From a virus: a stretch of 37,778 bases of DNA. The DNA lies in the UHGV virus genome UHGV-0340823, one strand, 5' to 3'. Positions 1-37,778 of the stretch are shown here, in pieces. The notes under the pieces are model-generated. The model did no database searches and had not been told where the DNA came from. It worked only from the letters and a program-made list of their open reading frames with translations. Both the position numbers and the translations under genes were made by a program. The stretch's first letter is position 1, and each line of letters opens with the position of its first letter.

Positions 1-2
1 TC

Positions 3-512
3 AGCCCGAAGTTCGCTGATACGGGCAAAGCCTACCTGGTTGGCCTGGCCGCCACTGATGATCCAGCCAGTCTGGGTACGGAAATGCTGACATTCAGCGC
101 CAGTGCAGCCCATAACCCGTTGGCAAACCGCAAGCAGAATCCCGCCAATCTTTTTACCGCTGCAGAGGAAACGGTGATCGAACTGGAAGAAATCCAGGAG
201 GACAAGCCGTCCCTGTTTGCCCGCGTCACGGCGCTGTTCACCAAAAAAGAGCAGTCCGACGATGCCCGGTTCTCTGATGTGCATAAGGCCGTGGAGCTGG
301 TCGCCACTGAGCAGCAAAACCTGAGCGCACGCACCGAAAAATCCCTGTCTGAGCAGGAAGAACGCCTGTCTAAGTTGGAGACTGCCCTGCAGGCACAACA
401 GGCCGCCTTTAACGAACTGGTGGACAAGCTGAGCCATGAGGACTGCCGCCAGGACTACCGCCAGCGTGCAACAGGCGGTAACGCCCCTGCTGACACTCTG
501 ACCAATTGCTGA
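3..512 (+). CDS. capsid scaffolding protein, P2 gpO-like (5-prime end outside window)
   Basis: Frame is open from the window edge; charged coiled-coil-like C-terminus; lies immediately upstream of the gpN-like capsid gene. Confidence 0.55.
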   Translation, partial: SPKFADTGKAYLVGLAATDDPASLGTEMLTFSASAAHNPLANRKQNPANLFTAAEETVIELEEIQEDKPSLFARVTALFTKKEQSDDARFSDVHKAVELVATEQQNLSARTEKSLSEQEERLSKLETALQAQQAAFNELVDKLSHEDCRQDYRQRATGGNAPADTLTNC

Positions 513-528
513 TGGAGCATAAAACCCG

Positions 529-1587
529 ATGAAGAAGAATACCCGCTTTGCTTTTAACGCTTACCTGCAGCAGCTGGCGCGTCTGAACGGTGTGGCAGTT
601 GAAGAACTGTCCAGCAAGTTCACTGTGGAGCCGTCTGTGCAGCAGACGCTGGAAGACCAGATCCAGCAGTCCGCCGCTTTCCTGACGCTGATTAACGTCA
701 CGCCAGTGACTGAGCAGTCCGGTCAGCTGCTGGGGCTGGGTGTTGGCAGCACCATTGCCGGAACCACTGACACCACCGCGAAAGAGCGTGAACCTGTCGA
801 TCCTACGCTGATGGTCGATGTGGAATACAAATGCGAACAGACCAACTTTGACACGGTGCTGACCTACGCGAAGCTGGACCTGTGGGCGAAGTTTCAGGAT
901 TTCCAGGTGCGTATCCGTAACGCCATCGTGAAACGTCAGGCACTGGACCGCATCATGATCGGCTTTAACGGCGTGAAGCGTGCGAAAACCTCTAACCGTA
1001 GCGAAAACCCGCTACTGCAGGATGTGAATAAAGGCTGGCTGCAGAAAATCCGTGAGGATGCACCGGATCACGTCATGGGCAGCACCACCACGGGCGGTGA
1101 AACCACACCGGGCGCAGTGAAAGTCGGGAAAGGTGGCGAATATGCCAACCTGGACGCCGTGGTGATGGATGCCGTCAATGAGCTTATCGACGTGGTCTAC
1201 CAGGACGATGACGATCTGGTGGTGATTTGCGGTCGTGAACTGCTGTCTGACAAGTATTTCCCGCTGGTCAACAAAGAGCAGGAAAACAGTGAAAAACTGG
1301 CTGCCGATATGATCATCAGTCAGAAACGCATGGGTGGCCTGCAGGCCGTGCGTGCGCCGTTCTTCCCGCCGAATGCGCTGCTGATCACCCGTCTGGATAA
1401 CCTGTCCATCTACTGGCAGGAAGACACCCGCCGCCGTTCAGTTATCGACAACCCGAAACGTGACCGGATTGAAAACTTTGAATCCGTTAACGAAGCCTAT
1501 GTGGTTGAGGACTACCGCTGTGCCGCACTGGTGGAAAACATCCAGATTGGTGATTTCAGCGCCGCCGCAGCCGAAACCGGAGCGTAA
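529..1587 (+). CDS. major capsid protein, P2 gpN family
   Basis: 352 aa; N-terminus MKKNTRFAFNAYLQQLARLNGV and FTVEPSVQQTL closely resemble P2 gpN as recalled. Confidence 0.85.
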   Translation: MKKNTRFAFNAYLQQLARLNGVAVEELSSKFTVEPSVQQTLEDQIQQSAAFLTLINVTPVTEQSGQLLGLGVGSTIAGTTDTTAKEREPVDPTLMVDVEYKCEQTNFDTVLTYAKLDLWAKFQDFQVRIRNAIVKRQALDRIMIGFNGVKRAKTSNRSENPLLQDVNKGWLQKIREDAPDHVMGSTTTGGETTPGAVKVGKGGEYANLDAVVMDAVNELIDVVYQDDDDLVVICGRELLSDKYFPLVNKEQENSEKLAADMIISQKRMGGLQAVRAPFFPPNALLITRLDNLSIYWQEDTRRRSVIDNPKRDRIENFESVNEAYVVEDYRCAALVENIQIGDFSAAAAETGA

Positions 1588-1590
1588 TCC

Positions 1591-2241
1591 ATGAGCCTGA
1601 GTCCCGCACGGCAGCATCGCCTGCGCGTTCAGGCTGAACAGGCCGCCCGCGAGGGCGGCAGTGTTCGCCACGCATCGGGCTATGACCTGATGCTGCTGCA
1701 ACTGGCGGAAGACCGCCGCCGTCTCAAGGGCGTTCAGTCCACGGTGAAAAAAGCGGAAATCAAGGTGGAGCTACTGCCGAAATATGCCGCCTGGGCGGAG
1801 GGCGTCCTGGCTGCCGGAGGCGCTCAACAGGATGACGTGCTGATGTACGTGATGCTGTGGCGCATTGATGCCGGAGATTATGCCGGGGCGCTGGAGATCG
1901 GGCGTCATGCTCTGCGTCATGGCTGGGTGATGCCGCTGGGTAACCGCAACGTGCAGACCGTGCTGGCAGAGGAAATGTCAGACGCGGCGCAGAGCGCAAT
2001 GCTTGCCGCCACCGGCTTTGATGCGGATCTATTACTGCAGACGCTGGAACTGACAGACGGTCTGGATATGCCGGACCAGTCACGGGCGCGTCTGCATAAA
2101 GCGATTGGCGCTGTCCTGAGTGAAAGCAATCCGGCGTCCGCCCTTAATCATCTCAACCATGCGTTACAGCTCGATCCCCGCTGTGGCGTGAAAAAAGACA
2201 AACAGCAGCTGGAGCGCAGACTGCGCAATGACAGCCGCTGA
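1591..2241 (+). CDS. terminase endonuclease subunit, P2 gpM-like
   Basis: Position directly after gpN, 216 aa, ATG 4 nt after the gpN stop. Confidence 0.7.
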   Translation: MSLSPARQHRLRVQAEQAAREGGSVRHASGYDLMLLQLAEDRRRLKGVQSTVKKAEIKVELLPKYAAWAEGVLAAGGAQQDDVLMYVMLWRIDAGDYAGALEIGRHALRHGWVMPLGNRNVQTVLAEEMSDAAQSAMLAATGFDADLLLQTLELTDGLDMPDQSRARLHKAIGAVLSESNPASALNHLNHALQLDPRCGVKKDKQQLERRLRNDSR

Positions 2242-2336
2242 CAGAACGTGCCCCCGCGCACGGGCGGCACGGGGTGGCGAAAGGCACTGCCACATCAAAA
2301 CCCCGTCCACCGCCCTCTATTTCAGGAGAAAGCAGC

Positions 2337-2801
2337 ATGAAGTTTGTTGCGCCAGAACAGGCACCGGAACAGGCGGAAATCATCAGGAATACGCCGTTCT
2401 GGCCTGATGTGGACCTGTCGGAGTTTCGCAGCGTGATGCGCACTGACGGCACGGTGACGCAGCCGCGTTTAAAGCAGGTTGCGCTGTCGGCAATTTCGGA
2501 GGTCAACGCAGAGCTGTATGAGTTTCGCAGGCGCCAGCAGGTGCTGGGGTATGCCTCGCTGGCAGAGGTTCCGGCGGAACAGCTGGACGGCAAAAGTGAG
2601 CGCATTCAGCACTATTTCAACGCGGTTTACTGCTGGGCACGCGCCATGCTCAACGAACGTTACCAGGACTATGACGCCACGGCGTCCGGTGTGAAGCGGG
2701 GCGAGGAACTGGCGGAAGCAAGCGGTGATTTGTGGCGTGACGCCCGCTGGGCCATCAGCCGGGTACAGGACGCGCCGCACTGCACAGTGGAGCTTATCTG
2801 A
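2337..2801 (+). CDS. head completion/stabilisation protein, P2 gpL-like
   Basis: Synteny; ATG at 2337 preceded by AGGAGAAA; stop overlaps next start (ATGA). Confidence 0.7.
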   Translation: MKFVAPEQAPEQAEIIRNTPFWPDVDLSEFRSVMRTDGTVTQPRLKQVALSAISEVNAELYEFRRRQQVLGYASLAEVPAEQLDGKSERIQHYFNAVYCWARAMLNERYQDYDATASGVKRGEELAEASGDLWRDARWAISRVQDAPHCTVELI

Positions 2802-3004
2802 TGAAAGTGCGTGCGCATCAGTATGACACGGTGGACGCGCTTTGCTGGCGTCATTACGGGCGCACGCAGGGTGTCACGGAGCAGGTACTGAAGGCAAATC
2901 CGGGGCTTGCCGAATACGGCCCCTTTTTACCTCACGGGCTGCAGGTGGAGCTGCCGGACATTCCGACCACCACCACCGTGCAGACCGTCCAGCTATGGGA
3001 CTGA
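2801..3004 (+). CDS. tail protein X (P2 gpX-like)
   Basis: 67 aa; motifs DALCWRHYGRTQGV and ANPGLAE match the gpX pattern as recalled. Confidence 0.75.
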   Translation: MKVRAHQYDTVDALCWRHYGRTQGVTEQVLKANPGLAEYGPFLPHGLQVELPDIPTTTTVQTVQLWD

Positions 3005-3007
3005 ATT

Positions 3008-3223
3008 ATGACGCTTGAGCGAATCAGCGCCTTTATCACGTATTGCATCGCCGTCGTGCTGGCCTGGCTGGGCGATTTGTCCATCAAGGATGCCTCAACG
3101 CTGGGCGGCCTGATGATTGGTGTGCTGATGCTGGCTATCAACTGGTACTACAAACACAAAGCCTACCAGCTTCTGCGCGACGGGCAGATCTCGCGGGAGG
3201 ACTATGAATCCATCAATCGTTAA
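3008..3223 (+). CDS. putative holin
   Basis: 71 aa with two hydrophobic segments and a charged C-terminal tail; sits between gpX and the endolysin. Confidence 0.5.
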   Translation: MTLERISAFITYCIAVVLAWLGDLSIKDASTLGGLMIGVLMLAINWYYKHKAYQLLRDGQISREDYESINR

Positions 3224-3716
3224 ACGCTGCCTTGTCGGGGCCGTGCTGGCTATTGCTGCCACGCTGCCGGGTTTTCAGCAGCTTCACACCTCCGTGGAGG
3301 GGCTGAAACTGATTGCCGATTACGAAGGCTGTCGTCTGCAGCCGTATCAGTGCAGCGCGGGTGTCTGGACCGACGGCATTGGTAATACATCGGGCGTCAT
3401 TCCCGGCAAAACAATCACGGAACGACAGGCAGCAGAAGGGCTGATCTCCAACGTGCTGCGTGTGGAGCGGGCACTGGAAAGGTGTGTGAAGCAACAGCCA
3501 CCACAGAAGGTGTATGACGCTACGGTGTCGTTTGCCTTCAACGTGGGGACGGGCAATGCCTGCAGCTCCACGCTGGTGAAATTGCTCAATCAGCGGCGCT
3601 GGGCGGATGCGTGCCGACAGTTGCCGCGCTGGGTTTATGTAAAAGGTGTGTTTAATCAGGGGCTGGATAACCGCCGTGCGCGGGAGATGGCCTGGTGTTT
3701 ACAGGGAGCAAACTGA
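3204..3716 (+). CDS. endolysin, phage lysozyme family with N-terminal SAR-like segment (P2 K-like)
   Basis: E-x8-C-x5-T catalytic pattern (YEGCRLQPYQCSAGVWT); hydrophobic N-terminus CLVGAVLAIAATLPG; GGGAGG before the ATG. Confidence 0.8.
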   Translation: MNPSIVKRCLVGAVLAIAATLPGFQQLHTSVEGLKLIADYEGCRLQPYQCSAGVWTDGIGNTSGVIPGKTITERQAAEGLISNVLRVERALERCVKQQPPQKVYDATVSFAFNVGTGNACSSTLVKLLNQRRWADACRQLPRWVYVKGVFNQGLDNRRAREMAWCLQGAN

Positions 3717-3717
3717 A

Positions 3718-4017
3718 ATGAAAAAGAAATTAATCAGCGGACTGTTTCTGATGTTATGGATGGCGCTGTTAATCGCAGCAATGGTGTATCCGCAGGGGAT
3801 TTTTCCGGTACTGGCAGCGTCCGGCGTTTGGGTAGCCTGTTTGCTGACATGGGCGGTAATTCCGGTAGCACTGGTTGCGTTAATTAAGAATGGCCCGCTC
3901 TGGCAGGAGTTGAGGGCATCTTTGCTGAAGACAATTACCTGTAACCAGGTGAATCATTTGATACCAACGAGGGTTTTAGTGAAAGGAGGTGAAATCACCT
4001 GTAAGATACTGAAATAA
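3718..4017 (+). CDS. LysA-like membrane protein, probably truncated and chimeric at the Mu-like insertion junction
   Basis: Hydrophobic N-terminal two-thirds; the last ~25 codons run through the repeat-dense sequence that starts TGTAAC at 3940. Confidence 0.45.
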   Translation: MKKKLISGLFLMLWMALLIAAMVYPQGIFPVLAASGVWVACLLTWAVIPVALVALIKNGPLWQELRASLLKTITCNQVNHLIPTRVLVKGGEITCKILK

Positions 4018-4150
4018 AACAGGTGATGTCTGGATGAGCGCTTAAAGTCTATTTGATACCGATTGTGCAATAATTAATCATTTATTCTAAAATCGGCAAA
4101 ACTTTTGATACTACGGATTGACGCTTAAAATGGCTTTAAAAAGGCTTAAA
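3940..4150 (+). repeat. candidate Mu-type left end with three transposase-binding-like repeats
   Basis: TG at 3940; TTTGATAC at about 3957, 4052 and 4104 in shared context; GCTTAAA repeats near 4040, 4123, 4133, 4143; palindrome AGGTGAAATCACCT near 3987. Confidence 0.5.
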
Positions 4151-4211
4151 ACGTTTTTCTCCAGATTGTCTTTAAAGGAGTGTACTACAGCACAAAAATT
4201 GCACCACTCCC

Positions 4212-4796
4212 TTACGCACTAGCCTTTTTCTGGGTTACATTTAAATGATTAACCTTAGCTTCACATTCTTCATAAATCTCTCTTACAGTATCATCGGGTA
4301 ACTCTTGTAGACTCAATGCTAGTGCTCTTTTGACTCCGCTCAATGAGTGCAGTTTTTGAATATCTGTATCAAGCAAAACGGTTAGTAGTTCGGCCCCTTT
4401 TCTGATCAATAAGTTGGACAAAATCTCTTGTTCAGATGAAGTTAGCGAGTCCCACGCCCTCATGATGATGGAATCACTATCATCAATTCTTTGTTTTTTT
4501 GTTCTTTTTGTTTGTTCAATTGGTTCTTTTTTCATGCTTGGCTCATCACCATAACCATGGACTAGCCACTCCATAGATACATGTTCTCTTTCTGCAATGT
4601 TCTGGAGATGGTGCTTTCTTGGTTGTGGTGGCGGCTGATTGTTTCTCCTTTTGTAGTAGTTCTGCAATGTCTGAACGTTTATCCCCCATGCTCTAGCCGC
4701 CTCACTTCTCGATTTGTAACGCTCTGCAAGACGAAAAATCCGTTCGATCACTGGTTCTTTTCCTTCGTCGAGAAAAGAACTGTTTTTCATGTTCAT
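4212..4796 (-). CDS. Mu-type repressor (c-like)
   Basis: Minus strand, divergent from ner; about 195 aa from the MNMKNSS start (track ORF extends to 4925); AT-rich immunity-region composition. Confidence 0.65.
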   Translation of the reverse strand: MNMKNSSFLDEGKEPVIERIFRLAERYKSRSEAARAWGINVQTLQNYYKRRNNQPPPQPRKHHLQNIAEREHVSMEWLVHGYGDEPSMKKEPIEQTKRTKKQRIDDSDSIIMRAWDSLTSSEQEILSNLLIRKGAELLTVLLDTDIQKLHSLSGVKRALALSLQELPDDTVREIYEECEAKVNHLNVTQKKASA

Positions 4797-4963
4797 GCTC
4801 TCAGGTTCCTTTGTATTTATCTTATTGATATTAATAACAAAAACACCACAAAGAATAAAAAGAACAAAATACCTTGATTTGGTTCTTTTGTTTGTTCTAT
4901 TATTTACCCGTACAGATATCCGCACGAATATCCGCGCGGGTAACTTTTTAGAATAGAGGAAGT
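4797..4963. promoter_or_regulatory. divergent early regulatory region between repressor and ner (candidate operators and promoters)
   Basis: AT-rich 167 bp; inverted repeat AGAACAAA (about 4861) / TTTGTTCT (about 4891); direct repeat ATATCCGC twice (about 4916 and 4928). Confidence 0.5.
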
Positions 4964-5212
4964 ATGAGTAGAAGAGAAGTTTCAGATCACGATTGGCCGC
5001 CTGAAATCATCAAGGCGCGCTTACACATGGCTGGCTTATCACTGCGCTCTTTATCTTTAAAGGCTGGTTACAGCAGGGATTCGCTGAAAAGCGTATTACG
5101 TACTCCTTGCCGACCGTATCAGCAAATAATTGCTGATGCTCTTGGGGTATCGCCTGAAGAAATCTGGCCCAGTCGATACCAGGTTAAGAGCTATATGAGA
5201 AAGGCGTCATGA
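4964..5212 (+). CDS. ner: Ner-like DNA-binding protein
   Basis: 82 aa; motifs LSLRSLSLKAGYS and IIADALGVSPEEIWPSRY match Mu Ner as recalled. Confidence 0.85.
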   Translation: MSRREVSDHDWPPEIIKARLHMAGLSLRSLSLKAGYSRDSLKSVLRTPCRPYQQIIADALGVSPEEIWPSRYQVKSYMRKAS

Positions 5213-5213
5213 T

Positions 5214-7304
5214 ATGTATGTCATTGCAAAAGAACTGATTGGCGCGCCCGGAATGCCTGCTACAACAAAAGGTATTCGCCAGGCATTACAACGTTACGTA
5301 CAAGGGAAAAGCTGTTGTTCCCGTCGTCGCTCAGGCTCTAAAGCAACTGAATACAGCATCGACTGTTTACCTGAAGTGACGCAGCAGGCATTACGTGAAC
5401 GCTACGCCCTGCAACTGATGACTCAAAAAGTCGATGAATCACCGGTTCCGGTGGTGACAAAGGCCAGACGCTCACCTGACGTGGTTGATGCGGTGGAGGC
5501 ATATCGCGGTTCACCACAACTGATGGTCGAACGCCTCAATGCCCTGACTGAAAAACAGCGCCAGGTGGCAGAGGCACGAATCGCGATTGTCAGCGAGGTG
5601 CTGAAATTCGCGCAACAACCCGGTTTCAGCTGCGCTAGAGCCATCCGTTTTATCGTTGACCGCCTGTCACGCTCACAACTGGACGAGCGCATAGTGGCAA
5701 TGGTTGAGACGGCGAACGCCAAAAAGGGAAACAGCCGCGTGTTGAGTGAAATCACGCTGAAACGCTGGATTGCGGCCTTTAACAAGGCACAGAACGCCGC
5801 TGAACGCCTGCTTTTACTGGCACCGGGTAAACGTCAGGAAATAAAAGCCGAAGATATTAACTGGCTGCCCGAATTTCTGGCGCAGTATCGCCAGTCAAAC
5901 GGCCGACCAATGACCGAGGCTTACGAGGATTTTGTTGCTGAATGGCAGCACCGGCACGCTGATGAGCCTTATATGCTCGATATCATGCCGTCTTATGACA
6001 CCATTCGCCGCGCAATGAAGAAACTGCCGGAAGTGGTGAAACAAAAAGGCCGGGTGACCGGCAGTGAATACCGCCAGCTTGAGGGATTCACGCGCCGCGA
6101 CTGGTCCAGAATGCCGGTGAACTATGTCTGGATTGGTGACGGTCACGGCATGAAGCTGAAATGCAGGCACCCGGTTCACGGGCGGCCATTTGCACCGGAA
6201 GTAACCTTTGTTATCGATGGCGGTACACGCTTTGTGGTGGGCTGGAGCCTTGACCTGGCTGAAAATGTTTTCGCCGTAGCCGGTGCCATACAGCACGGTA
6301 TTCGACATCACGGCAAACCGTTTCTGTATTACTCGGATAATGGCTCCGGGGAAACCGCCGACATCCTGGATAAGGAGATTGTGGGGATACTACCGCGACT
6401 GGGGATTAATCACCCGACCGGGATTGCCGGTAATCCGCAGGGACGGGGCATTATCGAACGGCTTAACCGCACATTACCGATGCGCATAGCCCGTAAATAC
6501 CGCACCTATTTCGGGAAAGGTGCAGATCGCGAGACGTTACGCAAAACCAACCGCGATTTACGCTCGGCATTCACTGCCCTGCAACAGGGCAAGCGGCTGA
6601 ACGCCCGGCAGCAGTCAGCGATGCGTGATTTACCGTCCTGGTCTGAACTGATTGATGCCATTCGTGACGGCGTTGAGTGGTACAACAACCGGCCGCACGA
6701 TGAATTACCCATGAAGCCGAACGGTAAACATTACAGCCCGGCGGAGTTCAGAAAAAAACGCCTGGCAGAAGAGGACACGGAAATTGAATGGCTGTCCGAT
6801 GTGGAATTGCGGGACATGTTCCGGCCGATGGTGGAACGCCCTGTAAGACGCTGTGAAATACGCTGGCTGAATAATATTTACTACGCGCCCGAGCTGCGTG
6901 ATGAACATGGCCGCAAAGTGCTTATCAGCTATGACATTCATGATGCCGAACGAATTACCGTACGTCGCCCGGATGGCAGCGTGATTTGCGAGGCGGTATG
7001 GGACGGCAATAAACGCGAAGCCTTCCCGGTCAGCGCGGAATACTACAAACAGCAGCAGCGCCTTAAAGGTATGCGTAAACGCGCAGAGGAAAAAATCCGT
7101 GATGCCGAGGATGAGGTTGTCAACGTGCTGGAGCACAAGCCGCAGGAGCCATGGCTGGAAAACATCTACCGCCCGGTGGGTAATACGGTGGCCGTTCAGC
7201 AACCTGCCGTTGATGATGAACCTGATGAAGAATACGAGCGTAATTTCCAGCGGGGATTGCAGTTGCTGGAAGCGAAATTAAAAGAAAATGACCCGCTGGC
7301 CTGA
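5214..7304 (+). CDS. DDE transposase, MuA-like
   Basis: 696 aa directly after ner; WIGDGHG motif analogous to the MuA catalytic region. Confidence 0.85.
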   Translation: MYVIAKELIGAPGMPATTKGIRQALQRYVQGKSCCSRRRSGSKATEYSIDCLPEVTQQALRERYALQLMTQKVDESPVPVVTKARRSPDVVDAVEAYRGSPQLMVERLNALTEKQRQVAEARIAIVSEVLKFAQQPGFSCARAIRFIVDRLSRSQLDERIVAMVETANAKKGNSRVLSEITLKRWIAAFNKAQNAAERLLLLAPGKRQEIKAEDINWLPEFLAQYRQSNGRPMTEAYEDFVAEWQHRHADEPYMLDIMPSYDTIRRAMKKLPEVVKQKGRVTGSEYRQLEGFTRRDWSRMPVNYVWIGDGHGMKLKCRHPVHGRPFAPEVTFVIDGGTRFVVGWSLDLAENVFAVAGAIQHGIRHHGKPFLYYSDNGSGETADILDKEIVGILPRLGINHPTGIAGNPQGRGIIERLNRTLPMRIARKYRTYFGKGADRETLRKTNRDLRSAFTALQQGKRLNARQQSAMRDLPSWSELIDAIRDGVEWYNNRPHDELPMKPNGKHYSPAEFRKKRLAEEDTEIEWLSDVELRDMFRPMVERPVRRCEIRWLNNIYYAPELRDEHGRKVLISYDIHDAERITVRRPDGSVICEAVWDGNKREAFPVSAEYYKQQQRLKGMRKRAEEKIRDAEDEVVNVLEHKPQEPWLENIYRPVGNTVAVQQPAVDDEPDEEYERNFQRGLQLLEAKLKENDPLA

Positions 7305-7375
7305 AATAAAAAAATAACCCGAGCGGCGACTCAGGTTATTTGATTAAACAAGGTATCAAATGAGAGGTTAATAAT

Positions 7376-8308
7376 ATGACTGATATTAACGATGTAATCA
7401 AGACCATTGATGAACTTATTGATGGCGGCGTACTGACGCAGTATGCCATCGCCAGAGAGGCGGGAATTTCCGATGGCACATTATCGGCTTTCCGTAAGGG
7501 AAAATATAAAGGCGATAACGCTGCTGTGGCTGCTTCCCTGCGTTCCTGGTATGAGAACTGGAATAAACAAAGCGCACTGCCCGAGCCGCCGCAGTTTGTG
7601 GAAACGCAGACAGTCCAGGAGCTGCGCGCGCTGTTTCAGGCGGTCCGCCTGATGGGCTGTATTAACGTCATAGTGGGCGTGCCCGGGGTGGGTAAAACGG
7701 CCACCGCCCGTAATTACTGCCAGGAGCAACCAAACACCTGGATGATCACCCTGTCTCCCGCGCATTCCAGCGTCACGGAGTGTCTGCTGGAGCTGGCCGA
7801 TGCGCTGGGGATTGATTATACCCGCGCGAACAAAGGGGCGTTATCCCGCGCCATCCGCCGTCGCCTGATGGGAACGCGTGGACTGGTGATTGTGGATGAG
7901 GCGGATCATCTTGGTATTGACGGTCTGGAGCAACTCCGGGCAATCCAGGACGCCACGGGGATCGGGATGGTGCTTATTGGTAACCCGCGCGGACTGTTTA
8001 AGGGGGGGCGCCGCGCCGTTGATGATTTATCGCGCCTGTTCAGCCGTCTTGCCCGTACAAAACAACTTCGCAAGGCCAAAAAGGCGGATGTGCTGGCTAT
8101 TGCCAGGGCGTGGGGTATCAGTGGTGAGGCCGAGCTGGCTGTCATGCAGGCTATCGCTGAAAAACCGGGAGCATTACGTGTTCTGACACATACGCTTAAC
8201 CAGGCATGGATCACCGCCAGTGGTGAAGGCGCGGCGCTGACAGAAAAACATATTAATGCGGCCTTTAAAGAGGTTTATACCAACCCTGAATTACTCTCAC
8301 AGGTGTGA
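7376..8308 (+). CDS. transposition ATPase, MuB-like (AAA+)
   Basis: Walker A GVPGVGKT; DEAD-like VIVDEADHL; position after the transposase. Confidence 0.85.
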   Translation: MTDINDVIKTIDELIDGGVLTQYAIAREAGISDGTLSAFRKGKYKGDNAAVAASLRSWYENWNKQSALPEPPQFVETQTVQELRALFQAVRLMGCINVIVGVPGVGKTATARNYCQEQPNTWMITLSPAHSSVTECLLELADALGIDYTRANKGALSRAIRRRLMGTRGLVIVDEADHLGIDGLEQLRAIQDATGIGMVLIGNPRGLFKGGRRAVDDLSRLFSRLARTKQLRKAKKADVLAIARAWGISGEAELAVMQAIAEKPGALRVLTHTLNQAWITASGEGAALTEKHINAAFKEVYTNPELLSQV

Positions 8309-8310
8309 TT

Positions 8311-8532
8311 ATGGCGGTATTTTATATTCCTGATATTTACGGACGCTTTTACCTGGTTAATTTCGATAACGTGAAGGTGATTTCACTGGCCGAAAATAAA
8401 GAATGTGGCGATTTACTTTTTGAATTTAATGACCGCACACGAATGGTGATATCTGCCGGACTTGATCGCGAAGGTGCGACAGAAGTTTACAGCGGAATAT
8501 GCCGTTCTGTTGGTGCGAAACAAGTCAGCTAA
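8311..8532 (+). CDS. hypothetical early protein
   Basis: ORF with ATG at 8311 just after the B stop; no recognisable motif. Confidence 0.4.
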   Translation: MAVFYIPDIYGRFYLVNFDNVKVISLAENKECGDLLFEFNDRTRMVISAGLDREGATEVYSGICRSVGAKQVS

Positions 8533-8544
8533 ATGAGGTGTTAT

Positions 8545-8799
8545 ATGAATATGCAATCCTGCGGTAACAAAATGAATTTATTCGACTCCCTGAACAGCGC
8601 GCGCCGTCTGACCGAACTTGCCGGTGCGGTACTGGAACGCAGTAAGCGCTACCCACAACGTTTTGCACTGAAAACCACGCCGCCGGTAGGCAACGTGCAG
8701 GGAACCGGTGAAATTGAAATCACCATACAGACCAACGGCCTGCGCCGCCGTGTGAAGGCCACCCGCATAAGCGGATGCACGGTTTACTGGGAGGTGTGA
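8545..8799 (+). CDS. hypothetical early protein
   Basis: ORF; GAGGTG precedes the ATG at 8545. Confidence 0.4.
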   Translation: MNMQSCGNKMNLFDSLNSARRLTELAGAVLERSKRYPQRFALKTTPPVGNVQGTGEIEITIQTNGLRRRVKATRISGCTVYWEV

Positions 8800-8800
8800 G

Positions 8801-9082
8801 ATGAAACGAAATCTGATTGCGTGGGCGTGGTCGAGCGGTCTCATTGAGTTTGGTTACGTCCTGCCGGAAGGTGCATTGCCGATAGTTGCCGGAAAGCCTG
8901 CCACAGTACGGCATGTGATTGAGGTTATGGCGCGTCATGGACGTGATGAACAGGAGCAGTTACTGGTTCCGGGGATACCGGAAGCGGTGACGGAGGAAGA
9001 AGCCTTTAATGCCATGATTCGGTTCTGCCGTGAGGTCAGACGCCGGGTCAGTTATCCAAACAGAACGAGGACCAGAGGATGA
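8801..9082 (+). CDS. hypothetical early protein
   Basis: ORF translationally coupled to its neighbours. Confidence 0.4.
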   Translation: MKRNLIAWAWSSGLIEFGYVLPEGALPIVAGKPATVRHVIEVMARHGRDEQEQLLVPGIPEAVTEEEAFNAMIRFCREVRRRVSYPNRTRTRG

Positions 9083-9351
9083 GTAAAGTTGTACGCATTA
9101 TTTTCGAATACAAGGAGCACGTTATCCATAAAAACGCTGATGAAACAGTGCACATGGGGGTAAGTCTGGACATACGTTCAACCGGGATAAAGCAGAAAGG
9201 TGATGGACCCGCCATGATTTTTGGGGTGGTTATGCTCGCGGAAAGCAGAGACTTTGCTGAACTTGTGGCAATGAAAGCCAGAGCGCTCATGAAAGATATG
9301 AACATGAGTTCCGGGGTTATTAAAGGTAATGAATTTAATCAGCAGGGGTAA
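9079..9351 (+). CDS. hypothetical early protein, paralog 1 of a tandem pair
   Basis: N-terminus MSKVVRIIFEYKEH parallels the next ORF. Confidence 0.45.
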   Translation: MSKVVRIIFEYKEHVIHKNADETVHMGVSLDIRSTGIKQKGDGPAMIFGVVMLAESRDFAELVAMKARALMKDMNMSSGVIKGNEFNQQG

Positions 9352-9355
9352 TTCC

Positions 9356-9649
9356 ATGAGCAAAGTACGCGTTATTTTTGAATTTGAGAATGTTTCGCAT
9401 GACGAAAAGCTGGCAGGCAATGACTGTGTTGAAGTGCATGAAAAGATTGGTGTGGATGTGAAAACAGAACGTGATACGGAGAACAGCCCGACGTCACTCT
9501 GTGATGTTTATGCAAGTATTCTCCAGTATCACAGTCCTGCAATTATTCATTTCCTCTCAGCGGAATTTCAGGCATCTGCACAGGATTTTGGAGCGGATGC
9601 CATCATTAAACACCACCGCGTGCATAAAGCATCAGGCACACTGCAATAA
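9356..9649 (+). CDS. hypothetical early protein, paralog 2 of a tandem pair
   Basis: N-terminus MSKVRVIFEFENVSH parallels the previous ORF. Confidence 0.45.
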   Translation: MSKVRVIFEFENVSHDEKLAGNDCVEVHEKIGVDVKTERDTENSPTSLCDVYASILQYHSPAIIHFLSAEFQASAQDFGADAIIKHHRVHKASGTLQ

Positions 9650-9660
9650 GGAAAAACAAA

Positions 9661-10191
9661 ATGGCTAAACGCGTTACAAAATTAAAGGCCGCAGCCGAGG
9701 CCGCACCACAGACCCGCGAAGAAGTCAGCCGCGATATCCGACGCTTTGGGGATATGCAGCGTGAGGCGCTGCGCCTGGAAACAGCGATGAATGACGAAGT
9801 GGCAGAAATTACCGCCCGTTATACGCCGCAGATTGAAAACCTTAAAAAAGAAATCAAAGTGCTTTTTAAAGGGATTCAGGACTGGTGTAAAACCAACCGC
9901 AATGAGCTGACGAACGGCGGTGAAACCAAAACAGCCAATCTGACCACCGGAACGGTGTCATGGCGGCTGGGAACGCCATCATGCAGCGTCAGCCGTGATG
10001 TGGAAGGCGTGATTGAAATGCTGCGCCGTATGGGCCTTGAGCGCTTCATCCGCACGAAAGAGGAAGTGAATAAGCAAGCTGTCCTGGCGGAGCCGGATGC
10101 GGTGAAAGACATTGCCGGTATTAAGGTGAATAAAGGCGCTGAAAGTTTTTATGTCGAGCCTTTTGAACAGGACGCCGGACTGAACAAATAA
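9661..10191 (+). CDS. gam: host-nuclease inhibitor Gam (Mu Gam / Ku-like)
   Basis: Near-colinear similarity to Mu Gam as recalled (GDMQREALRLETAMNDEVAEI, ELTNGGETKTANLTTGTVSWR, ERFIRTKEEVNK). Confidence 0.85.
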   Translation: MAKRVTKLKAAAEAAPQTREEVSRDIRRFGDMQREALRLETAMNDEVAEITARYTPQIENLKKEIKVLFKGIQDWCKTNRNELTNGGETKTANLTTGTVSWRLGTPSCSVSRDVEGVIEMLRRMGLERFIRTKEEVNKQAVLAEPDAVKDIAGIKVNKGAESFYVEPFEQDAGLNK

Positions 10192-10288
10192 CACCGCATT
10201 AAATCTTTAAATATCACTTCATTTTAATTATGGCGCTCGCGTCAGGGGACTGCCTGCGCCTGTAAACTGAAAATAAGGAACAGGAAAT

Positions 10289-10831
10289 ATGGCATATTTT
10301 TATTTCAAATTAGACTGTGTGCAGACAAATAAATATTTCACCAAATATCAACAGACTGTTTTACCGCTACGCAACAGTATTCTTCGGGCGTTACTGAAAA
10401 ATACAGGCGCTACCGGATTGCGCTTAAAGCCGTTCGCCATGGACGTAATCAGTGAGTTTTATTTTTCCGGTGCTCTGCCTGCGGGCTGGTGTAAGCGCGA
10501 TGATGTGGCTTTTATCGGTGGTGGACAGTGCTTTATAGCCAGACCTGATGAGTCATGCCCTGAAGGAGCGGCGATTGCCGCAATGATTGAAGCCGCTGAA
10601 CGCGAGTTAAGAAAGCGTCCTGATTTCCTTGTCTGGCTCTGTGAAAAGCTGGGGGTAATGAGAATCCCCTCCATGTTTAACACGGACTCCTGGTGGACCC
10701 CGTCGCTCTCCCGTGATGCCCTGTGCGTGGTGTTTAAAGTAGGCGCTTATGGCAGGGAAATAAAAGGGTGTATTCCTGAAGAATGCCAGGAGATTAAACA
10801 TTCTGAATATGTGGCGCTGACGGAGGAATAA
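10289..10831 (+). CDS. hypothetical protein (accessory block)
   Basis: 180-aa ORF with AAGGAA before the ATG; Cys-rich; no recognised motif. Confidence 0.45.
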   Translation: MAYFYFKLDCVQTNKYFTKYQQTVLPLRNSILRALLKNTGATGLRLKPFAMDVISEFYFSGALPAGWCKRDDVAFIGGGQCFIARPDESCPEGAAIAAMIEAAERELRKRPDFLVWLCEKLGVMRIPSMFNTDSWWTPSLSRDALCVVFKVGAYGREIKGCIPEECQEIKHSEYVALTEE

Positions 10832-10834
10832 TTC

Positions 10835-11368
10835 ATGATTGATGCAAAAGTGCTTGAAGGGGTTAAAAACTGGCTGCGTTTTTCTGGCCGTCTGACCAGT
10901 CGTTCTCTGGCAGAAAAAATGAATATGCCGCTATCCTCCATGGTTTATTTTCTGCGTGATGCGGTTGATGCAGGCGTGCTGACGGACCGTAACGGTTTTT
11001 ATGATATTCCGCGTCCCCGCCCGGTGCAGCCGGTTCGTCGCAAATGCAGCCAGGAGTCTGCGGCTGATGATGTTCAGTGGTGCAGCTTCAGAAAATCCCT
11101 GCCGTGGATTGAAGGGCATGATATTCCGTCGATGGCGTGGGAATTTGCTCAGGGCGTTCTGACCTGTGAAACCGTTTATGTGGTGGCTGAAGTTGATGAG
11201 CAGGCCATGAAAGAAGGCGTGCCCCAGTTTGTGATGGCGTATATCGACATTCGCCTGGGTGTCATTATCTGCGGTTTAAGCGGCTGGAATATCACCGAAC
11301 ATGTTCTGCGTTACCTGATTGTTGACCGGACGGCTGCGCCTGCCGGGATATCTGCGGAGGTGGCGTAA
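10835..11368 (+). CDS. hypothetical protein with N-terminal winged-helix-like segment
   Basis: ORF starts 4 nt after the previous stop; N-terminal 60 aa resemble a small HTH regulator. Confidence 0.45.
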   Translation: MIDAKVLEGVKNWLRFSGRLTSRSLAEKMNMPLSSMVYFLRDAVDAGVLTDRNGFYDIPRPRPVQPVRRKCSQESAADDVQWCSFRKSLPWIEGHDIPSMAWEFAQGVLTCETVYVVAEVDEQAMKEGVPQFVMAYIDIRLGVIICGLSGWNITEHVLRYLIVDRTAAPAGISAEVA

Positions 11369-11883
11369 TGTTCTTTAAAACATCAAACCCTTCCGCGCTG
11401 GCTGCGTGGCAAAAATACCAGCAGGACTGCCAGAAAGTTAAGGATGAGGCAAAACGCCTTGAGGCCGTGCTGAATGTTGCGTGCCGGTCGGTATTTGTAT
11501 CCGGTATCAGTGGATTTTGCTTTAAGGGACTGCGTTTTACGGAGGACAAATATCCTTTTCATCGCGACTTATGGCGAAAACCGACTGCGTCGAATGGCTG
11601 GAGCTGCACACCGCGCACATCACGTATCCCTAAAACCCTGCGTGTTGCCTCTGATGAACTGTACAGTCTGTGGCGTGAATATTCGCCCGTCACGTATGCC
11701 AGAACCGATGCGCTGTTGTTCTGGCTGGGTATTGATTTCTCGGCAATCCTGTTTGGCCCTGTGAAGTGGTTCTGCGTTGACGATGTGATTTACCTTCAGT
11801 GCGGCGTAAAACCCGCAAAACAGAAAATGACCGAAATACTGTCTGATGAGTTTTATGCTGCTGAAAAGCGAGTCAGGGGGTGA
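11368..11883 (+). CDS. hypothetical protein
   Basis: Start overlaps the previous stop (TAATG). Confidence 0.45.
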   Translation: MFFKTSNPSALAAWQKYQQDCQKVKDEAKRLEAVLNVACRSVFVSGISGFCFKGLRFTEDKYPFHRDLWRKPTASNGWSCTPRTSRIPKTLRVASDELYSLWREYSPVTYARTDALLFWLGIDFSAILFGPVKWFCVDDVIYLQCGVKPAKQKMTEILSDEFYAAEKRVRG

Positions 11884-11886
11884 TGC

Positions 11887-12438
11887 ATGATGAAATTACA
11901 ACCCATGGGACTAAAAGGTCGCGCCCCCGCTCATGTCCGTCCGTGGACACCTGAAGAAGATGCGCTGCTGATTGCGCTTTATTCATCCACCCCGGTTAAG
12001 GATATTGCTGCCAGAATAAAAAGAACTGTCTGGGCTGTATATAACCGGACTGGTGTATTGCGCAGTTCATACCCGGAGTTACTGAAATATAAACACCCAA
12101 GATTTACACCTGATGAAGATAAGTTTATTCGAAAAAATGCCAGAACAATGACCTGCCAGCAAATGGGAGAATATCTCGGACGTAATAAAGATTCTGTCAG
12201 ATGTCGGGCAGGAATGATTGGTGCTGGATTAACAAAGTGCGGAGAGTTACGCCCCGGCACGCGCATATCTGATTATGATGTACGTCTTATACGTGCGCTG
12301 CGTGATTCCGATTACCCACGCCGTCTGTCATTCCGGGAAATTGGCGAAAAGTTTGGAATATCTGAACATTCTGCTCACGCAGTTTATTACCGTCGCCGGA
12401 CTGCCGAGGACGCTGTATTACGGGAGTTAACGCCATGA
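11887..12438 (+). CDS. hypothetical DNA-binding protein with tandem Myb/SANT-like helix-turn-helix repeats
   Basis: Repeated WTPEEDALL / FTPDEDKFI motifs at about 50-aa spacing plus a third HTH-like segment. Confidence 0.45.
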   Translation: MMKLQPMGLKGRAPAHVRPWTPEEDALLIALYSSTPVKDIAARIKRTVWAVYNRTGVLRSSYPELLKYKHPRFTPDEDKFIRKNARTMTCQQMGEYLGRNKDSVRCRAGMIGAGLTKCGELRPGTRISDYDVRLIRALRDSDYPRRLSFREIGEKFGISEHSAHAVYYRRRTAEDAVLRELTP

Positions 12439-12746
12439 TAACGACCTTATTTGTTGAATCAGATGAACCTCTTGTGTGTGCCGCCGGAATGCCGCTCTGT
12501 GGCGGAACGCTGACCGGTGTTTATTTCGGGGATTTACGCGGTTATCCCTGGCATTCACTGAATGATGCTTTCCCACCTGATATGGAGGCTGTCGTGCTGA
12601 TTGTTCAGTATGGTCACCGTCAGGAGCTGCGCATCGGCCATATGGGGTATGAAGGCTTTTTTGTTGATGAAGAAACCGGAGCCTGCCTTGAAGATGAGGA
12701 CGGACAGGTGACGCACTGGTGCCATATTTCAGCTTTACCGGAATGA
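12435..12746 (+). CDS. hypothetical protein (possibly DUF551-like)
   Basis: 103 aa; C-terminal VTHWCHISALPE resembles small phage DUF551 proteins as recalled; weak. Confidence 0.4.
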   Translation: MITTLFVESDEPLVCAAGMPLCGGTLTGVYFGDLRGYPWHSLNDAFPPDMEAVVLIVQYGHRQELRIGHMGYEGFFVDEETGACLEDEDGQVTHWCHISALPE

Positions 12747-13111
12747 CGGGAGGTGAATGCGTGAGAAGTTATATTGATAATGAAAAACTGAAGACAATCA
12801 GCGACTGTCTTAGCTTGCTGGCAAAAATAAAAGAAACCATTGAAGAGATTAAATTTCAGCTTGAATACGCACCCTGTGGTGATGATACATGGCGTAACTC
12901 TGCCAGAAAAGCACTGGCTGTCTTTCAGAAACAACGCCGGACTGTTGAATACCGCCTTGCTGTATTACGCCAGGAGGAAAAGGAAAGAAATATAAGATGT
13001 CACGAGCGCGTTAATAACTTCCTTGTTCGTGAATTAAAAGAACGTGTGCCGGAGTCGGTATTTTTTGAGTGTGAGGCTGTTGCCCGTAGCAAAGCACTGG
13101 AAACTGATTAA
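12743..13111 (+). CDS. hypothetical protein (AT-rich moron)
   Basis: ATGA overlap with the previous stop; coiled-coil-like; visibly AT-richer than flanking DNA. Confidence 0.4.
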   Translation: MTGGECVRSYIDNEKLKTISDCLSLLAKIKETIEEIKFQLEYAPCGDDTWRNSARKALAVFQKQRRTVEYRLAVLRQEEKERNIRCHERVNNFLVRELKERVPESVFFECEAVARSKALETD

Positions 13112-13123
13112 ACAGGCAGGTGA

Positions 13124-13459
13124 ATGATGAGTATTGAATTAAGATCGTCTTATGAATATCGTAAAATTCTCATCGCCGGAGGCATGAAACCGGAAGATGC
13201 AGAAAAAATTGTTTCTTTTATGGATAAAGAATGTGACAAACGGGATATGCCAGAAATTATTATGGATGACATGATTCTGCATTCAGCCGTAGCGTTAAGC
13301 CCGTTATGGATTGTGCATTCTCTTGCTGAAATTGCCAAAGGCACCGATAAACAGGCAGCTGTTGCTGCCCTTCAGACGCTTAATGAAATGCGTATATCTC
13401 CACGCCCGACATTAATACATATGATTCTCTCCAGTATGGAGGATAAAGCAAATGAATAG
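13124..13459 (+). CDS. hypothetical protein (AT-rich moron)
   Basis: ORF in an AT-rich stretch. Confidence 0.4.
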   Translation: MMSIELRSSYEYRKILIAGGMKPEDAEKIVSFMDKECDKRDMPEIIMDDMILHSAVALSPLWIVHSLAEIAKGTDKQAAVAALQTLNEMRISPRPTLIHMILSSMEDKANE

Positions 13460-13649
13460 TCTACCCGCTGGATGGGCGCGGCCACTAATGGCCAGGAAGC
13501 ATCATTTTTTTAAAACAGGCGAAAATATCAGTATATGTGGACGGTGGTTATATCTGGCTCATAATCGCGAGCCGGATACATTTGAAAGCCCTGATGACTG
13601 TGCCGAATGCCGCAGAAGAGTGAATAAGGAGAAAGATAATGGACAATAG
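13452..13649 (+). CDS. hypothetical small Cys-containing protein
   Basis: 65 aa with ICGRW and DDCAEC; possible zinc-binding. Confidence 0.35.
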   Translation: MNSLPAGWARPLMARKHHFFKTGENISICGRWLYLAHNREPDTFESPDDCAECRRRVNKEKDNGQ

Positions 13650-13935
13650 TTCTCTGTTGTTCTGGTGCTTATATATCACATCCTTTTTCGGCGCATTTGT
13701 TATTACCCGGTGGTTATGTCGAAAAATCATCTGCTTTTTTGATAAAAGACATCCGGTTGAACGGGCGGCTGATGCGCTCATTCAGCAGGCCATTGTGTTA
13801 TATAGCGGTGAATTTTTCTGCCGGATAACAACCAGAGATGGCTGGCACATAATGATTATTCCGCCAACACACCATGCCCGGTGGGATGAGGCAGAAAAGG
13901 CTTTCCATGTCCGTAAAAAGGTAAATACGGTATGA
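13639..13935 (+). CDS. hypothetical membrane protein
   Basis: N-terminal hydrophobic segment LLFWCLYITSFFGAFVI. Confidence 0.4.
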   Translation: MDNSSLLFWCLYITSFFGAFVITRWLCRKIICFFDKRHPVERAADALIQQAIVLYSGEFFCRITTRDGWHIMIIPPTHHARWDEAEKAFHVRKKVNTV

Positions 13936-14441
13936 GAGGAAAACTGATATCCGCCATTCATGTGGCAAAGCGCGAGCTTGCCCTGGATGATGAGACTTAT
14001 ACATTCGTGCTGCTGGCAGCCACCGGCAAAACCAGCTGCCGGGATATGTCACCGGATGAGTTGTCCCGCGTGCTGGATGTTTTCAAAAAACGCGGTTTTA
14101 AAGTGCGTCAGAACCCGGTTAACCGGGCCTTAAAACCGGGTACGGTGACCGCTAAAATTCGCGCCATCTGGAAGGTGATGCACCGGCAGGGCTTTATCTC
14201 TGATGGTGCGGAAACCGCTCTTAACCGCTGGGTGAAATCGCAGACGGCCGCGCAGAACGGCGGCGAAGGTGTGGCAAACTGGCAGTGGCTGGAGCAACAC
14301 CCCGCCCTGGCCTCAGATGTGCTGGAGCGTCTCAAGCGATGGCACCGCCGCAAAATGCTGGCCGCGATGGGAATGCCCGAACGCACGCTGATGGGGTATG
14401 ACGCCGTTTGCAGGCAGTATGAAAAATCACTTCCCCGTTAA
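13932..14441 (+). CDS. gemA: GemA-like protein (Mu gp16 family)
   Basis: Position just upstream of the Mor/C gene; KRELALDDETY and CRDMSPDEL motifs resemble the gp16 family as recalled. Confidence 0.55.
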   Translation: MRGKLISAIHVAKRELALDDETYTFVLLAATGKTSCRDMSPDELSRVLDVFKKRGFKVRQNPVNRALKPGTVTAKIRAIWKVMHRQGFISDGAETALNRWVKSQTAAQNGGEGVANWQWLEQHPALASDVLERLKRWHRRKMLAAMGMPERTLMGYDAVCRQYEKSLPR

Positions 14442-14510: not shown

Positions 14511-14936
14511 ATGGCAGAAACTCAGATGAGCATGTTTGGTGGTGACAGTGAGCAACTGCACGCCCTTATCGACCGCCTTGATGACATCCCTGATGATGTT
14601 CTCAAAAAGAACTGGCCGCGGACCCTGTCAGAACTGGTTGAAGTCACCGGCGCAGAACTTCAGCGTCAGGGGATTGAGCCGGTACTGGCCGGTAAACTGG
14701 CACGCAAGGTGGCTGCGGCTCAGGCAGCCTATATGGGCGGACGGGGTTATTACCTGCCGGTCGGGGAATCTCTCTTTGCCGAGCTGCGAAACAATGAGAT
14801 ATTTTCGCGCTGGGACCGGGGCGAGAAAATTGAATCCCTTCGCCGCCATTACCGGATGTCAGAAACCCAGATTTATACCGTCATACGTGAACAGCGCCGT
14901 CTGCATCTGGCAAGAACGCAACCGCCACTTTTCTGA
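14511..14936 (+). CDS. Mor/C-family transcriptional activator (middle or late gene activator)
   Basis: 141 aa; resembles Mu Mor/C in length and C-terminal HTH region; GGAGG before the ATG. Confidence 0.7.
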   Translation: MAETQMSMFGGDSEQLHALIDRLDDIPDDVLKKNWPRTLSELVEVTGAELQRQGIEPVLAGKLARKVAAAQAAYMGGRGYYLPVGESLFAELRNNEIFSRWDRGEKIESLRRHYRMSETQIYTVIREQRRLHLARTQPPLF

Positions 14937-15007: not shown

Positions 15008-15508
15008 ATGCCAAAACTCCCCGCACCACTGCGTAAAAAGCTGATTGCCCTTGTTCTGGCCGGTGCCGGGACGTTCACGATTGCCACGCATTACACCGGT
15101 TACTGGGAAGGGAAAGAAAACTCCACGTATATCGATCCCACCGGTACACCCACCATCTGTTACGGCCATACCGGCCCGGATGTGAAACCGGGTATGACCC
15201 TGACGGATGAAGAATGCCTGGAACTACTGGAAAAGGACATGAAATGGGCCTTTGCGGCCATTGATCGGCGTGTTCAGGTGCCGCTTACCCGTGGTCAGAC
15301 TGTGGCGCTGGCTTCGTGGATCTTCTGGGCCGGTGAAACGAACTTCCGCAACTCCACGCTTCTGCGCCTGATCAATGCCGGGCAGATGCCCGCGTCCTGT
15401 AAGCAGTATATCCGCTGGATTTATTCAAAGGGGGTGAAACTCCCCGGCCTTGAGGCCCGCCGTTCGGCGGATGAATGGTTATGTCGCTACGACTTGCCGA
15501 AAGTCTGA
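15008..15508 (+). CDS. endolysin, phage lysozyme family with N-terminal SAR-like segment (Mu lys-like)
   Basis: E-x8-D-x5-T pattern (WEGKENSTYIDPTGTPT); hydrophobic Gly/Ala-rich N-terminus LIALVLAGAGTFTIA. Confidence 0.8.
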   Translation: MPKLPAPLRKKLIALVLAGAGTFTIATHYTGYWEGKENSTYIDPTGTPTICYGHTGPDVKPGMTLTDEECLELLEKDMKWAFAAIDRRVQVPLTRGQTVALASWIFWAGETNFRNSTLLRLINAGQMPASCKQYIRWIYSKGVKLPGLEARRSADEWLCRYDLPKV

Positions 15509-15581
15509 ACCGCTTCTGGCGACCGCTCATGATAGCGCTGCTGTGTGCGGTACTGCTGTTACGGGGTGTCCTGTGGCTGCG

Positions 15582-22218: not shown

Positions 22219-22254
22219 GCTTTTATTTTAACCAGGTAGTTTCACGGAGGCAAT

Positions 22255-37760: not shown

Positions 37761-37778
37761 CATCCGGCGCAGTGCTGG

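Follow-up and report, generated by a model that had tools for sequence, protein, structure and literature searches.

An Sp18-type Mu-like prophage inserted in the lysis cassette of a P2-like prophage of Escherichia coli

Results

The window analysed here is a 37,778-nt stretch of the virus genome UHGV-0340823, in which sequences of two temperate phages meet. With a probability of about 95%, an Sp18-type Mu-like phage integrated in a resident P2-family prophage, splitting a gene of the LysA family. The insertion is confirmed as real and was mapped to the base, at 3939/3940. Both junctions, the target duplication and the truncation of the gene were observed directly, as was the movement of this phage to many other sites. 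The first-pass annotation had proposed that a Mu-like prophage is nested in a P2-like lysis cassette, and this central claim holds: P2-type genes do resume beyond the Mu-like right end, and the interrupted gene is not full length. The last position of the window, 37778, falls within the invertible fibre segment, short of the Mu-like right end. No single contig spans both junctions, which are tied together by the samples they share in short-read metagenome and run assemblies.

The left part of the window (1–3716, + strand) was identified by BLAST identity and by Pfam, PHROG and NCBIfam matches as the late (O) operon of a P2-family prophage. It consists, all on the + strand, of the 3' part of gpO (to 512), the gpN major capsid gene (529–1587), the gpM terminase endonuclease subunit (1591–2241), gpL head completion (2337–2801), gpX (2801–3004), an HP1-family holin (3008–3223) and a lysozyme/endolysin (3204–3716). 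The gene order over 1–3939 is that of the O operon in the P2 record, and the canonical O-N-M-L-X-holin-endolysin series that had been read up to 3716 agrees with the coordinates and identities obtained here. By BLAST, 1–3939 is up to 99.8% identical to annotated E. coli P2-like prophages. A megablast query with window 1–6000 matched 60 phage records at no more than 97.7% identity, the majority of them from P2-like phages of Klebsiella and Escherichia, and 1271 E. coli genomes at no more than 99.8%. Klebsiella phage 4LV2017 and the ssrA-linked prophage of E. coli 2012EL-2448 have the P2 late order and are 97.7–99.8% identical over 1–3939; they differ from the window, in which the gene at the lysA position is interrupted after codon 74. 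Relative to P2 itself, the operon encodes an HP1-family holin, and its LysA-family protein has 125 aa in place of the 141 aa of P2. Between H and the sheath gene, this P2-like lineage further encodes a recombinase of its own along with an invertible fibre segment. Neither lysB, R and S nor P2 tail genes were found anywhere in the 37,778-nt window, by ORF list or by mapping.

Among the matches listed (60 phage records and ~1270 E. coli genomes), the P2-like alignments stop at 3939 in every case. Matches to Mu-like prophages begin at 3940, plus or minus 1–2 chance bases (245 genomes), and GC content falls across the junction from about 0.57 (0.55–0.60) to about 0.38 (0.37–0.41). The gene that follows the lysozyme gene in intact P2-like prophages is a 125-codon gene of the 'DNZ54_00345 family'. 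The window carries its 5' fragment (3718–3939, + strand, codons 1–74 of 125), a LysA-family membrane protein gene according to alignment and to NF038378, phrog_162 and PF28015. Base-by-base alignment showed 3718–3939 to be identical to positions 6718–6939 of the intact prophage of 2012EL-2448, with divergence from 3940. The reading frame continues as a 99-aa LysA'-attL fusion ORF through 25 foreign codons and a stop (3940–4017, + strand, by alignment; stop codon at 4015–4017). These codons are unlike the intact gene, as had been suspected for the last ~25 codons of the ORF.

Profile searches place both the family and the truncation. The window copy covers positions 1–76 of the 124 in NF038378, compared with 1–124 for the intact homologue, and with 74 of 125 codons left the breakpoint is at 3939/3940. 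The intact homologue matches phrog_162 over 1–135 of its 141 positions (E 3e-43) and P2 LysA matches it over 1–140 (E 2e-67); a PF28015 LysA match is also precomputed on the fusion product of the window. Pairwise similarity between the LysA-family protein and P2 LysA is weak. Judged by position and profile family, the window gene is a truncated LysA-family member, and the label 'lysA-like' given earlier to ORF 3718–4017 is right on these grounds. The truncated product lacks the C-terminal hydrophobic segment. In the P2 record lysA is described as nonessential and as affecting the timing of lysis; by analogy, the interrupted gene is a putative lysis-timing gene.

A pattern scan of viral, genome and metagenome contig collections did not find the exact string of the left junction, and BLAST against 5426 complete E. 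coli genomes returned no record spanning it. The exact 99-aa fusion protein of the left junction was called on five public contigs. One is contig k141_3210 of the ENA assembly ERZ27281703, which carries the fusion ORF and is 100% identical to window 3188–14017, and another is in the Logan assembly of SRR7411377.

From 3940 to 37778 (+ strand), the window consists of the left ~33.8 kb of an Sp18-type Mu-like prophage, assigned by identity to the E. coli SW070917 prophage and its annotation and by Pfam matches on the identical contig L017. The left end (attL, 3940–4130, + strand) has the terminus 5'-TGTAACC and reads 5'-TGTAACCAGGTGAATCATTTGATACC from 3940. It was recognised by its repeats and by the occurrence of the same terminus in seven other genomes, where 5'-TGTAACC abuts unrelated host DNA. 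Repeat-dense DNA had been noted from the TGTAAC at 3940, and three direct repeats with a TTGATAC core were located in it (3958–3964, 4053–4059 and 4105–4111; offsets 19, 114 and 166 from the end). These are putative L1, L2 and L3-like transposase binding sites. Three inverted TTGATAC-core copies are found at the right end of the SW070917 prophage, at offsets 19, 41 and 76, and six transposase sites have been reported for Sp18 (PMC2628397).

The abrupt switch to Mu early order that had been described after the lysA-like ORF is also apparent from the genes themselves. A c-like repressor gene, divergent from the early operon (4212–4796, − strand), matches the transcriptional repressors of phrog_3037 (E 2e-59), has weak HTH matches and is annotated as a 585-bp CDS in SJ7 and SW070917. 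On the + strand follow a Ner-like early regulator (4964–5212; PF13693 HTH_35, 2.5e-19; phrog_769) and a 696-aa transposase that also has a Mu DNA-binding domain (5214–7304; PF09299 Mu-transpos_C, PF02316, and phrog_310 with E 2e-212). The transposase is a distant MuA homologue that is 23% identical to Mu A over its full length. The next gene encodes a 310-aa MuB-like AAA+ ATPase of transposition and target capture (7376–8308, + strand; PF09077 Phage-MuB_C, AAA_22), which is 49% identical to Mu B.

Further along the element are gam (9661–10191), mor (14511–14936) and a lysozyme gene of its own (15008–15508), the lysozyme and spanin genes together occupying 15008–15971. The Mu-type head set (gp27/terminase/DUF935 portal/F/protease/T) includes the terminase (17570–19234), the portal, the protease and a gpT-type major head gene (24029–24976). 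The contractile tail genes comprise the sheath (26643–28145), a tube gene annotated in the SW070917 copy, the tape measure (29133–31199), baseplate genes, the tail fibre (36385–37344) and a fibre assembly gene (37341–37760). The presence of mor, lysis, Mu-type head and contractile tail genes is also recorded in the RefSeq annotation of the SW070917 prophage, which is 99.7–99.9% identical. The virion module appears complete, and the earlier statement that the Mu-like phage carries its own lysis and virion genes is borne out. The large ORFs of the Mu-like part are all open within the window. Scans of the window for tRNA genes and Rfam families found none; a 'tRNA-OTHER' feature annotated in the SW070917 copy is without ARAGORN support.

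Positions 3940–12000 show 100% identity to the prophages of E. coli SJ7 and SW070917; for the corresponding prophages of some 200 other genomes, mostly Shiga-toxin-producing, the figure is about 96.7%. The identity of 99.7–99.9% to the SW070917 prophage, whose copy occupies a different site, extends over 3940–36992. It ends, as does identity to DETEC-S792, a few bases past a gix-like crossover site in the tail-fibre gene (36957–36986, core AACCTCGGTT), which marks the start of the invertible host-range segment. At least 6.9 kb of the Mu-like prophage lies beyond the window on contigs L019–L022, comprising the rest of the invertible segment, gin, DUF6645, com, the methylase and attR; gin, DUF6645 and the methylase were each located on these contigs. 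Over its final 590 bp the window matches the fibre-tip/assembly cassette of the P2-like prophage family at 97% identity. Contigs break at this cassette, the window's own included, because it is shared by both phages.

To locate the right junction, the right-junction ORF was predicted by combining the right end of the SW070917 prophage with a duplication of 4 bp and what remains of lysA, and its product was used in a protein database search. The best match was P0001, a 101-aa protein, with 98% identity and 100% coverage. The contigs encoding P0001 come from the same two samples as the left junction (ERZ27281703 and SRR7411377) as well as two additional accessions. At this position each of the four contigs has the sequence ...ATCGCCGCGCTATA/TACC/CGAAAAGAAAACG..., and the reciprocal junction in public assemblies of the same samples is ...CGCCGCGCTATA/TACC/CGAAAAG.... 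The empty site, ...AATTACC/CGAAAAG, is occupied as ...GCGCTATA/TACC/CGAAAAG, and the four contigs together with the empty site define TACC (3936–3939) as the target sequence and its 4-bp duplication. An exact string for the predicted right junction, with either 4 or 5 bp duplicated, was not found in the viral, genome and metagenome contig collections.

The longest of the contigs, L019, continues past the right junction for 3 kb that are 99.7% identical to an intact P2-like prophage and contain the lysA 3' part, lysB, gpR, gpS, V, W and J. P2-type genes beyond the Mu-like right end had been named earlier as the result to look for. The order O-N-M-L-X-holin-endolysin-lysA-lysB-(lysC)-R-S on one strand is restored when window 1–3939 is combined with L019 10147–13150, and the intact prophage of 2012EL-2448 and P2 both have this combined late order.

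The length of the duplication and the right terminus departed from what the first-pass annotation had expected for a Mu-like element, namely 5 bp and a terminal CA. A duplication of 4 bp accompanies all eight independent insertions of this phage type, the present one and those at unrelated sites in seven complete genomes (SJ7, SW070917, Sakai, 96_1414P, 95NR1, strain 114 and 2-6-2). The duplicated targets in the seven genomes are TGTT, CGAC, TAAA, TTAC, CGAC, ATTC and GTAC. In the same eight cases the right terminus is ...GCGCTATA, ending ...CTATA, with TA and not CA as its last two bases. The first end repeat lies at offset 19 from both termini, which supports the 4-bp/TA boundaries. A model with a 5-bp duplication fails in 8/8 cases: the fifth base belongs to the element (A, or T at the left end) and differs from the flank every time. 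A search for the right end as the reverse complement of the 5-bp flank followed by TG also failed, and led to the 4-bp/TA result. Of the features of Mu sensu stricto, a 5-bp duplication and 5'-TG...CA-3' ends, the element has the left TG alone. The literature on Sp18-type and SfMu phages yielded no explicit duplication length, and no explicit statement on Mu-in-P2 nesting was found.

Alternatively, a rearrangement mediated by Mu, whether adjacent deletion, inversion or fusion of replicons, of the kind that replicative transposition can produce, could have left the left junction only and moved the P2 lysis and tail genes away from the right end. That end does lie beyond the window, and L019 could be explained by inversion of the DNA separating the invertible segments of the two phages; the matching TACC and the unbroken lysA''-lysB-R-S-V-W-J in the same samples are nevertheless the signature of a simple insertion, and rearrangement is very improbable.

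In Mu virion DNA the host flank at the left end measures 50–150 bp. The left flank here is 3939 bp, far beyond that range, and it is highly unlikely that the sequence stems from packaged Mu-like virion DNA with its host flank, or from a transient copy made in replicative transposition, instead of from a stable lysogen. Mu-type phages do carry host DNA at either end of their packaged genomes and, in the lytic cycle, transpose to many sites (PMC5977238), and Sp18-type phages are spontaneously induced (PMC2669165), but a single transient copy would not yield assembler consensus contigs, and the same insertion was assembled with both junctions in four sample accessions. A flank of 3.9 kb, the target duplication and the existence of a reciprocal junction led to the rejection of both packaged virion DNA and a hybrid P2-Mu phage.

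A wrong joining of P2-like and Mu-like sequences by the assembler has a negligible chance of being the explanation, for although the source is apparently a short-read (megahit-type) assembly and L019 from the same data set possibly holds a chimeric join through the repeated invertible cassette, the join in the window falls on the exact phage terminus with the same terminal base in seven other genomes, no repeat is common to its two sides, a reciprocal junction with a 4-bp duplication exists at which P2 sequence resumes at the exact base, and the junctions recur in four sample accessions.

Discussion

Integration of the Sp18-type phage would have proceeded by DDE transposition into a P2-family prophage already resident in an E. 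coli strain. In the LysA-family gene that lies downstream of the endolysin gene, the transpososome would have connected the phage ends (5'-TGTAACC...GCGCTATA-3') to two target bonds within codon 73/74 that are offset by 4 bp; repair of the resulting gaps would then have duplicated TACC. The proposed product has a left P2 block (.. O N M L X holin lysozyme lysA codons 1–74), a Mu-like prophage of about 40–41 kb whose early genes are co-oriented with the P2 late operon, and a right P2 block (lysA codons 74–125, lysB lysC R S V W J ...). Two fusion ORFs would result, one of LysA(1–74) with 25 attL residues (3718–4017) and one, outside the window, of 50 attR residues with LysA(74–125).

The inserted element is closely related to Sp18 of E. 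coli O157:H7 Sakai and to Phi804-3 (FRIK804) and the SJ7 and SW070917 prophages, which have the same termini, repeats, gene order and early genes. Nucleotide identity to this group is 96.7–100% in the early region, and to SW070917 it is 99.7–99.9% over 33 kb. The relatives occupy strain-specific insertion sites (PMC7430833) and likewise show 4-bp duplications, the site being a P2-like prophage gene here, sorM in Sakai and the prpD-prpE spacer in FRIK804. The tail/baseplate module is of the SW070917/DETEC-S792 type and about 75% identical to the Sakai-type module, while the fibre-tip cassette past the gix-like site is unlike that of SW070917. With Mu the element shares the divergent repressor, ner, A, B, kil, gam ... 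mor, lysis, head and tail genes, the Gin-type invertible fibre segment, a com-modification module at the right end and near-random insertion. The end architecture is also shared, with three repeats per end, L1 far from L2–L3, and R1 and R2 22 bp apart. It differs from Mu in its transposase (23% identical), in its 4-bp as opposed to 5-bp duplication and in a right-terminal TA in place of CA. Where Mu has Mom, the SW070917 copy, the closest relative of the window, has a cytosine methyltransferase at its right end.

The consequences for the P2-like prophage are likely to be severe. R and S are essential tail-completion genes. According to the P2 record, O, N, M, L, X, Y, K, lysA, lysB, R and S are carried on a single transcript that starts at pO, and since lysB/lysC/R/S share the O operon, they would be cut off from pO, with about 40 kb placed between. 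The composite of ~33.5 kb and ~40–41 kb would amount to ~74 kb from cos to cos, too large for a P2 capsid, whose capacity is about 33 kb. Mu-type prophages are not known to excise with precision, and the P2-like prophage is very likely permanently grounded, beyond mere impairment of lysis, and would no longer form viable virions because of the separation from pO, the oversize genome and the imprecise excision. For Sp18, no circular form was detected (PMC2669165). The earlier description of the P2-like prophage as possibly lysis-defective understated the probable damage and misplaced it, P2 lysA being nonessential. The main damage would lie in the separation of lysB/lysC/R/S and in the oversize, rather than in the loss of LysA.

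The Mu-like prophage is probably still active, because none of its large ORFs in the window is interrupted and Sp18 is packaged; Sp18 itself has been reported to be an intact prophage that is induced spontaneously and packaged efficiently without circularising (PMC2669165).

Insertions of Mu-like phages into other prophages were also found elsewhere. A near-identical phage lies inside the lambdoid tail gene L in SW070917, a Mu-like prophage lies inside a P2-family major capsid gene in AST46, and further cases in complete E. coli genomes affect lambdoid T, J, tape-measure and gp10 genes. These involve other target genes, and an insertion at the lysA site was present in 0/5426 complete genomes searched. 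The Sp18-type element occurs in more than 200 genomes with diverse flanking genes. About 7 of 60 sampled right ends of Sp18-type phages fall in phage genes, a proportion roughly equal to that of prophage DNA in these genomes (about 16% in Sakai; PMC2669165). The insertion is an ordinary outcome of near-random Mu-type transposition; its elements are known, and their arrangement is a new insertion allele.

The case documents, at base resolution, one temperate phage very probably inactivating another, and indicates that transposable phages contribute to prophage decay in prophage-rich E. coli lineages. The ~74-kb block is to be counted as two phages and not one, and the database 'LysA' proteins of 99 aa and 101 aa are junction artefacts. 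The most useful by-product is the 4-bp duplication and TA right terminus of Sp18-type phages, which corrects the Mu-derived default for prophage boundary calls; a check for a 5-bp duplication and a terminal CA would have yielded a false negative.

A wider reading, in which a variant transposition chemistry of the Sp18 type is combined with coupling of the two nested phages, is put forward tentatively and is rather less probable than its opposite. On the chemistry, the Sp18-type transpososome may have a geometry unlike that of Mu, with a 4-bp stagger and a TA at the right 3' terminus, and if so it would represent, among transposable phages, a mechanistic variant of its own that has apparently not been described. 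On the coupling, the two phages may interact by inversion between their crossover sites, by read-through from pO into the Mu-like early operon and by read-out from the methylase operon into lysB-R-S. A promoter and terminator scan of 3500–5400 gave counts no higher than in shuffled sequence, and speaks neither for nor against transcription running on from the P2 operon into the Mu-like early genes. The Mu-like methylase gene is followed, after 19 bp, by the start of the 101-aa right-end fusion ORF, which has the same orientation as lysB-R-S, and read-out into lysB-R-S during Mu-like late expression is conceivable. The P2-like prophage has a 93%-similar Gin-type invertible fibre system.

On contig L019, recombinase, sheath and tube genes of the P2-like prophage are present in inverted orientation and are joined via the cassette to the Mu-like gin. 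This join fits an inversion between crossover sites of the two phages and a short-read assembler path at the shared 2-kb repeat equally well.

Target duplication and termini

The junctions of the Sp18-type Mu-like prophages were compared at window positions 3936-3940, in L002, in L003 (E. coli SW070917, NZ_CM129862.1), in L005-L014 and in the public contigs L019-L022, which carry the right junction. The target duplication was 4 bp in all eight independent insertions, and the right terminus was ...CTATA, i.e. TA, in the same 8/8. The first-pass annotation had expected a 5-bp duplication and a terminal CA, neither of which was observed. In comparison with Mu, the Sp18-type transposase is just 23% identical to Mu A. 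A literature search found no paper stating a 4-bp duplication or a TA terminus for Sp18-type phages.

The Sp18 feature annotated in the Sakai record NC_002695.2 spans 5040971-5079729 (38,759 bp), while the termini common to all copies lie at 5040970 and 5079724 (38,755 bp). The annotation is therefore off by one base on the left and extends 5 bp into sorM on the right.

Probable module exchange and other nested prophages

The early region of the Mu-like prophage is 99.5-100% identical to that of SJ7, whereas its tail and baseplate module is ~75% identical to the Sakai/SJ7-type module and, as compared over window 30000-36992 with L002 and the search hits for that region, reaches 99.9-100% identity only with SW070917 and DETEC-S792. 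Together, these sequence identities point to a mosaic assembled by module exchange inside the Sp18 group. The near-identical prophage of SW070917 lies within a lambdoid tail gene L. In its RefSeq annotation, a "tRNA-OTHER" is placed in an intergenic spacer (L003 26153-26237, equivalent to window ~22133-22254); ARAGORN and Rfam scans of the window, including that spacer, found nothing. In strain AST46 (NZ_AP043639.1, ~2084462), a P2-family major capsid gene is interrupted by a Mu-like prophage with Mom, and the P2-like prophage has since lost its L-to-sheath DNA.

Right-junction fusion and invertible segment

A 101-aa fusion ORF is present at the right junction, outside the window (L019 10001-10306, on the strand of P2 lysB-R-S), joining 50 residues encoded by attR, the right end of the Mu-like prophage, to LysA residues 74-125. 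It starts 19 bp past the end of the Mu-like cytosine-methyltransferase gene, its product is labeled a LysA-family protein in databases, and it could mark read-out transcription from the Mu-like late operon.

The invertible segment was examined in window 36957-37778, L023 10574-11148 and L019 1-4782. The Mu-like fibre gene contains a gix-like crossover site (window 36957-36986), past which the fibre-tip/assembly cassette is 97% identical to the cassette in the P2-like prophage's own invertible segment; the Gin-family recombinase regions of the two elements are ~93% identical. In L019, the Mu-like gin is linked to the P2-like recombinase and sheath genes, both in inverted orientation; either the two elements have recombined by inversion, or the link was created during assembly.
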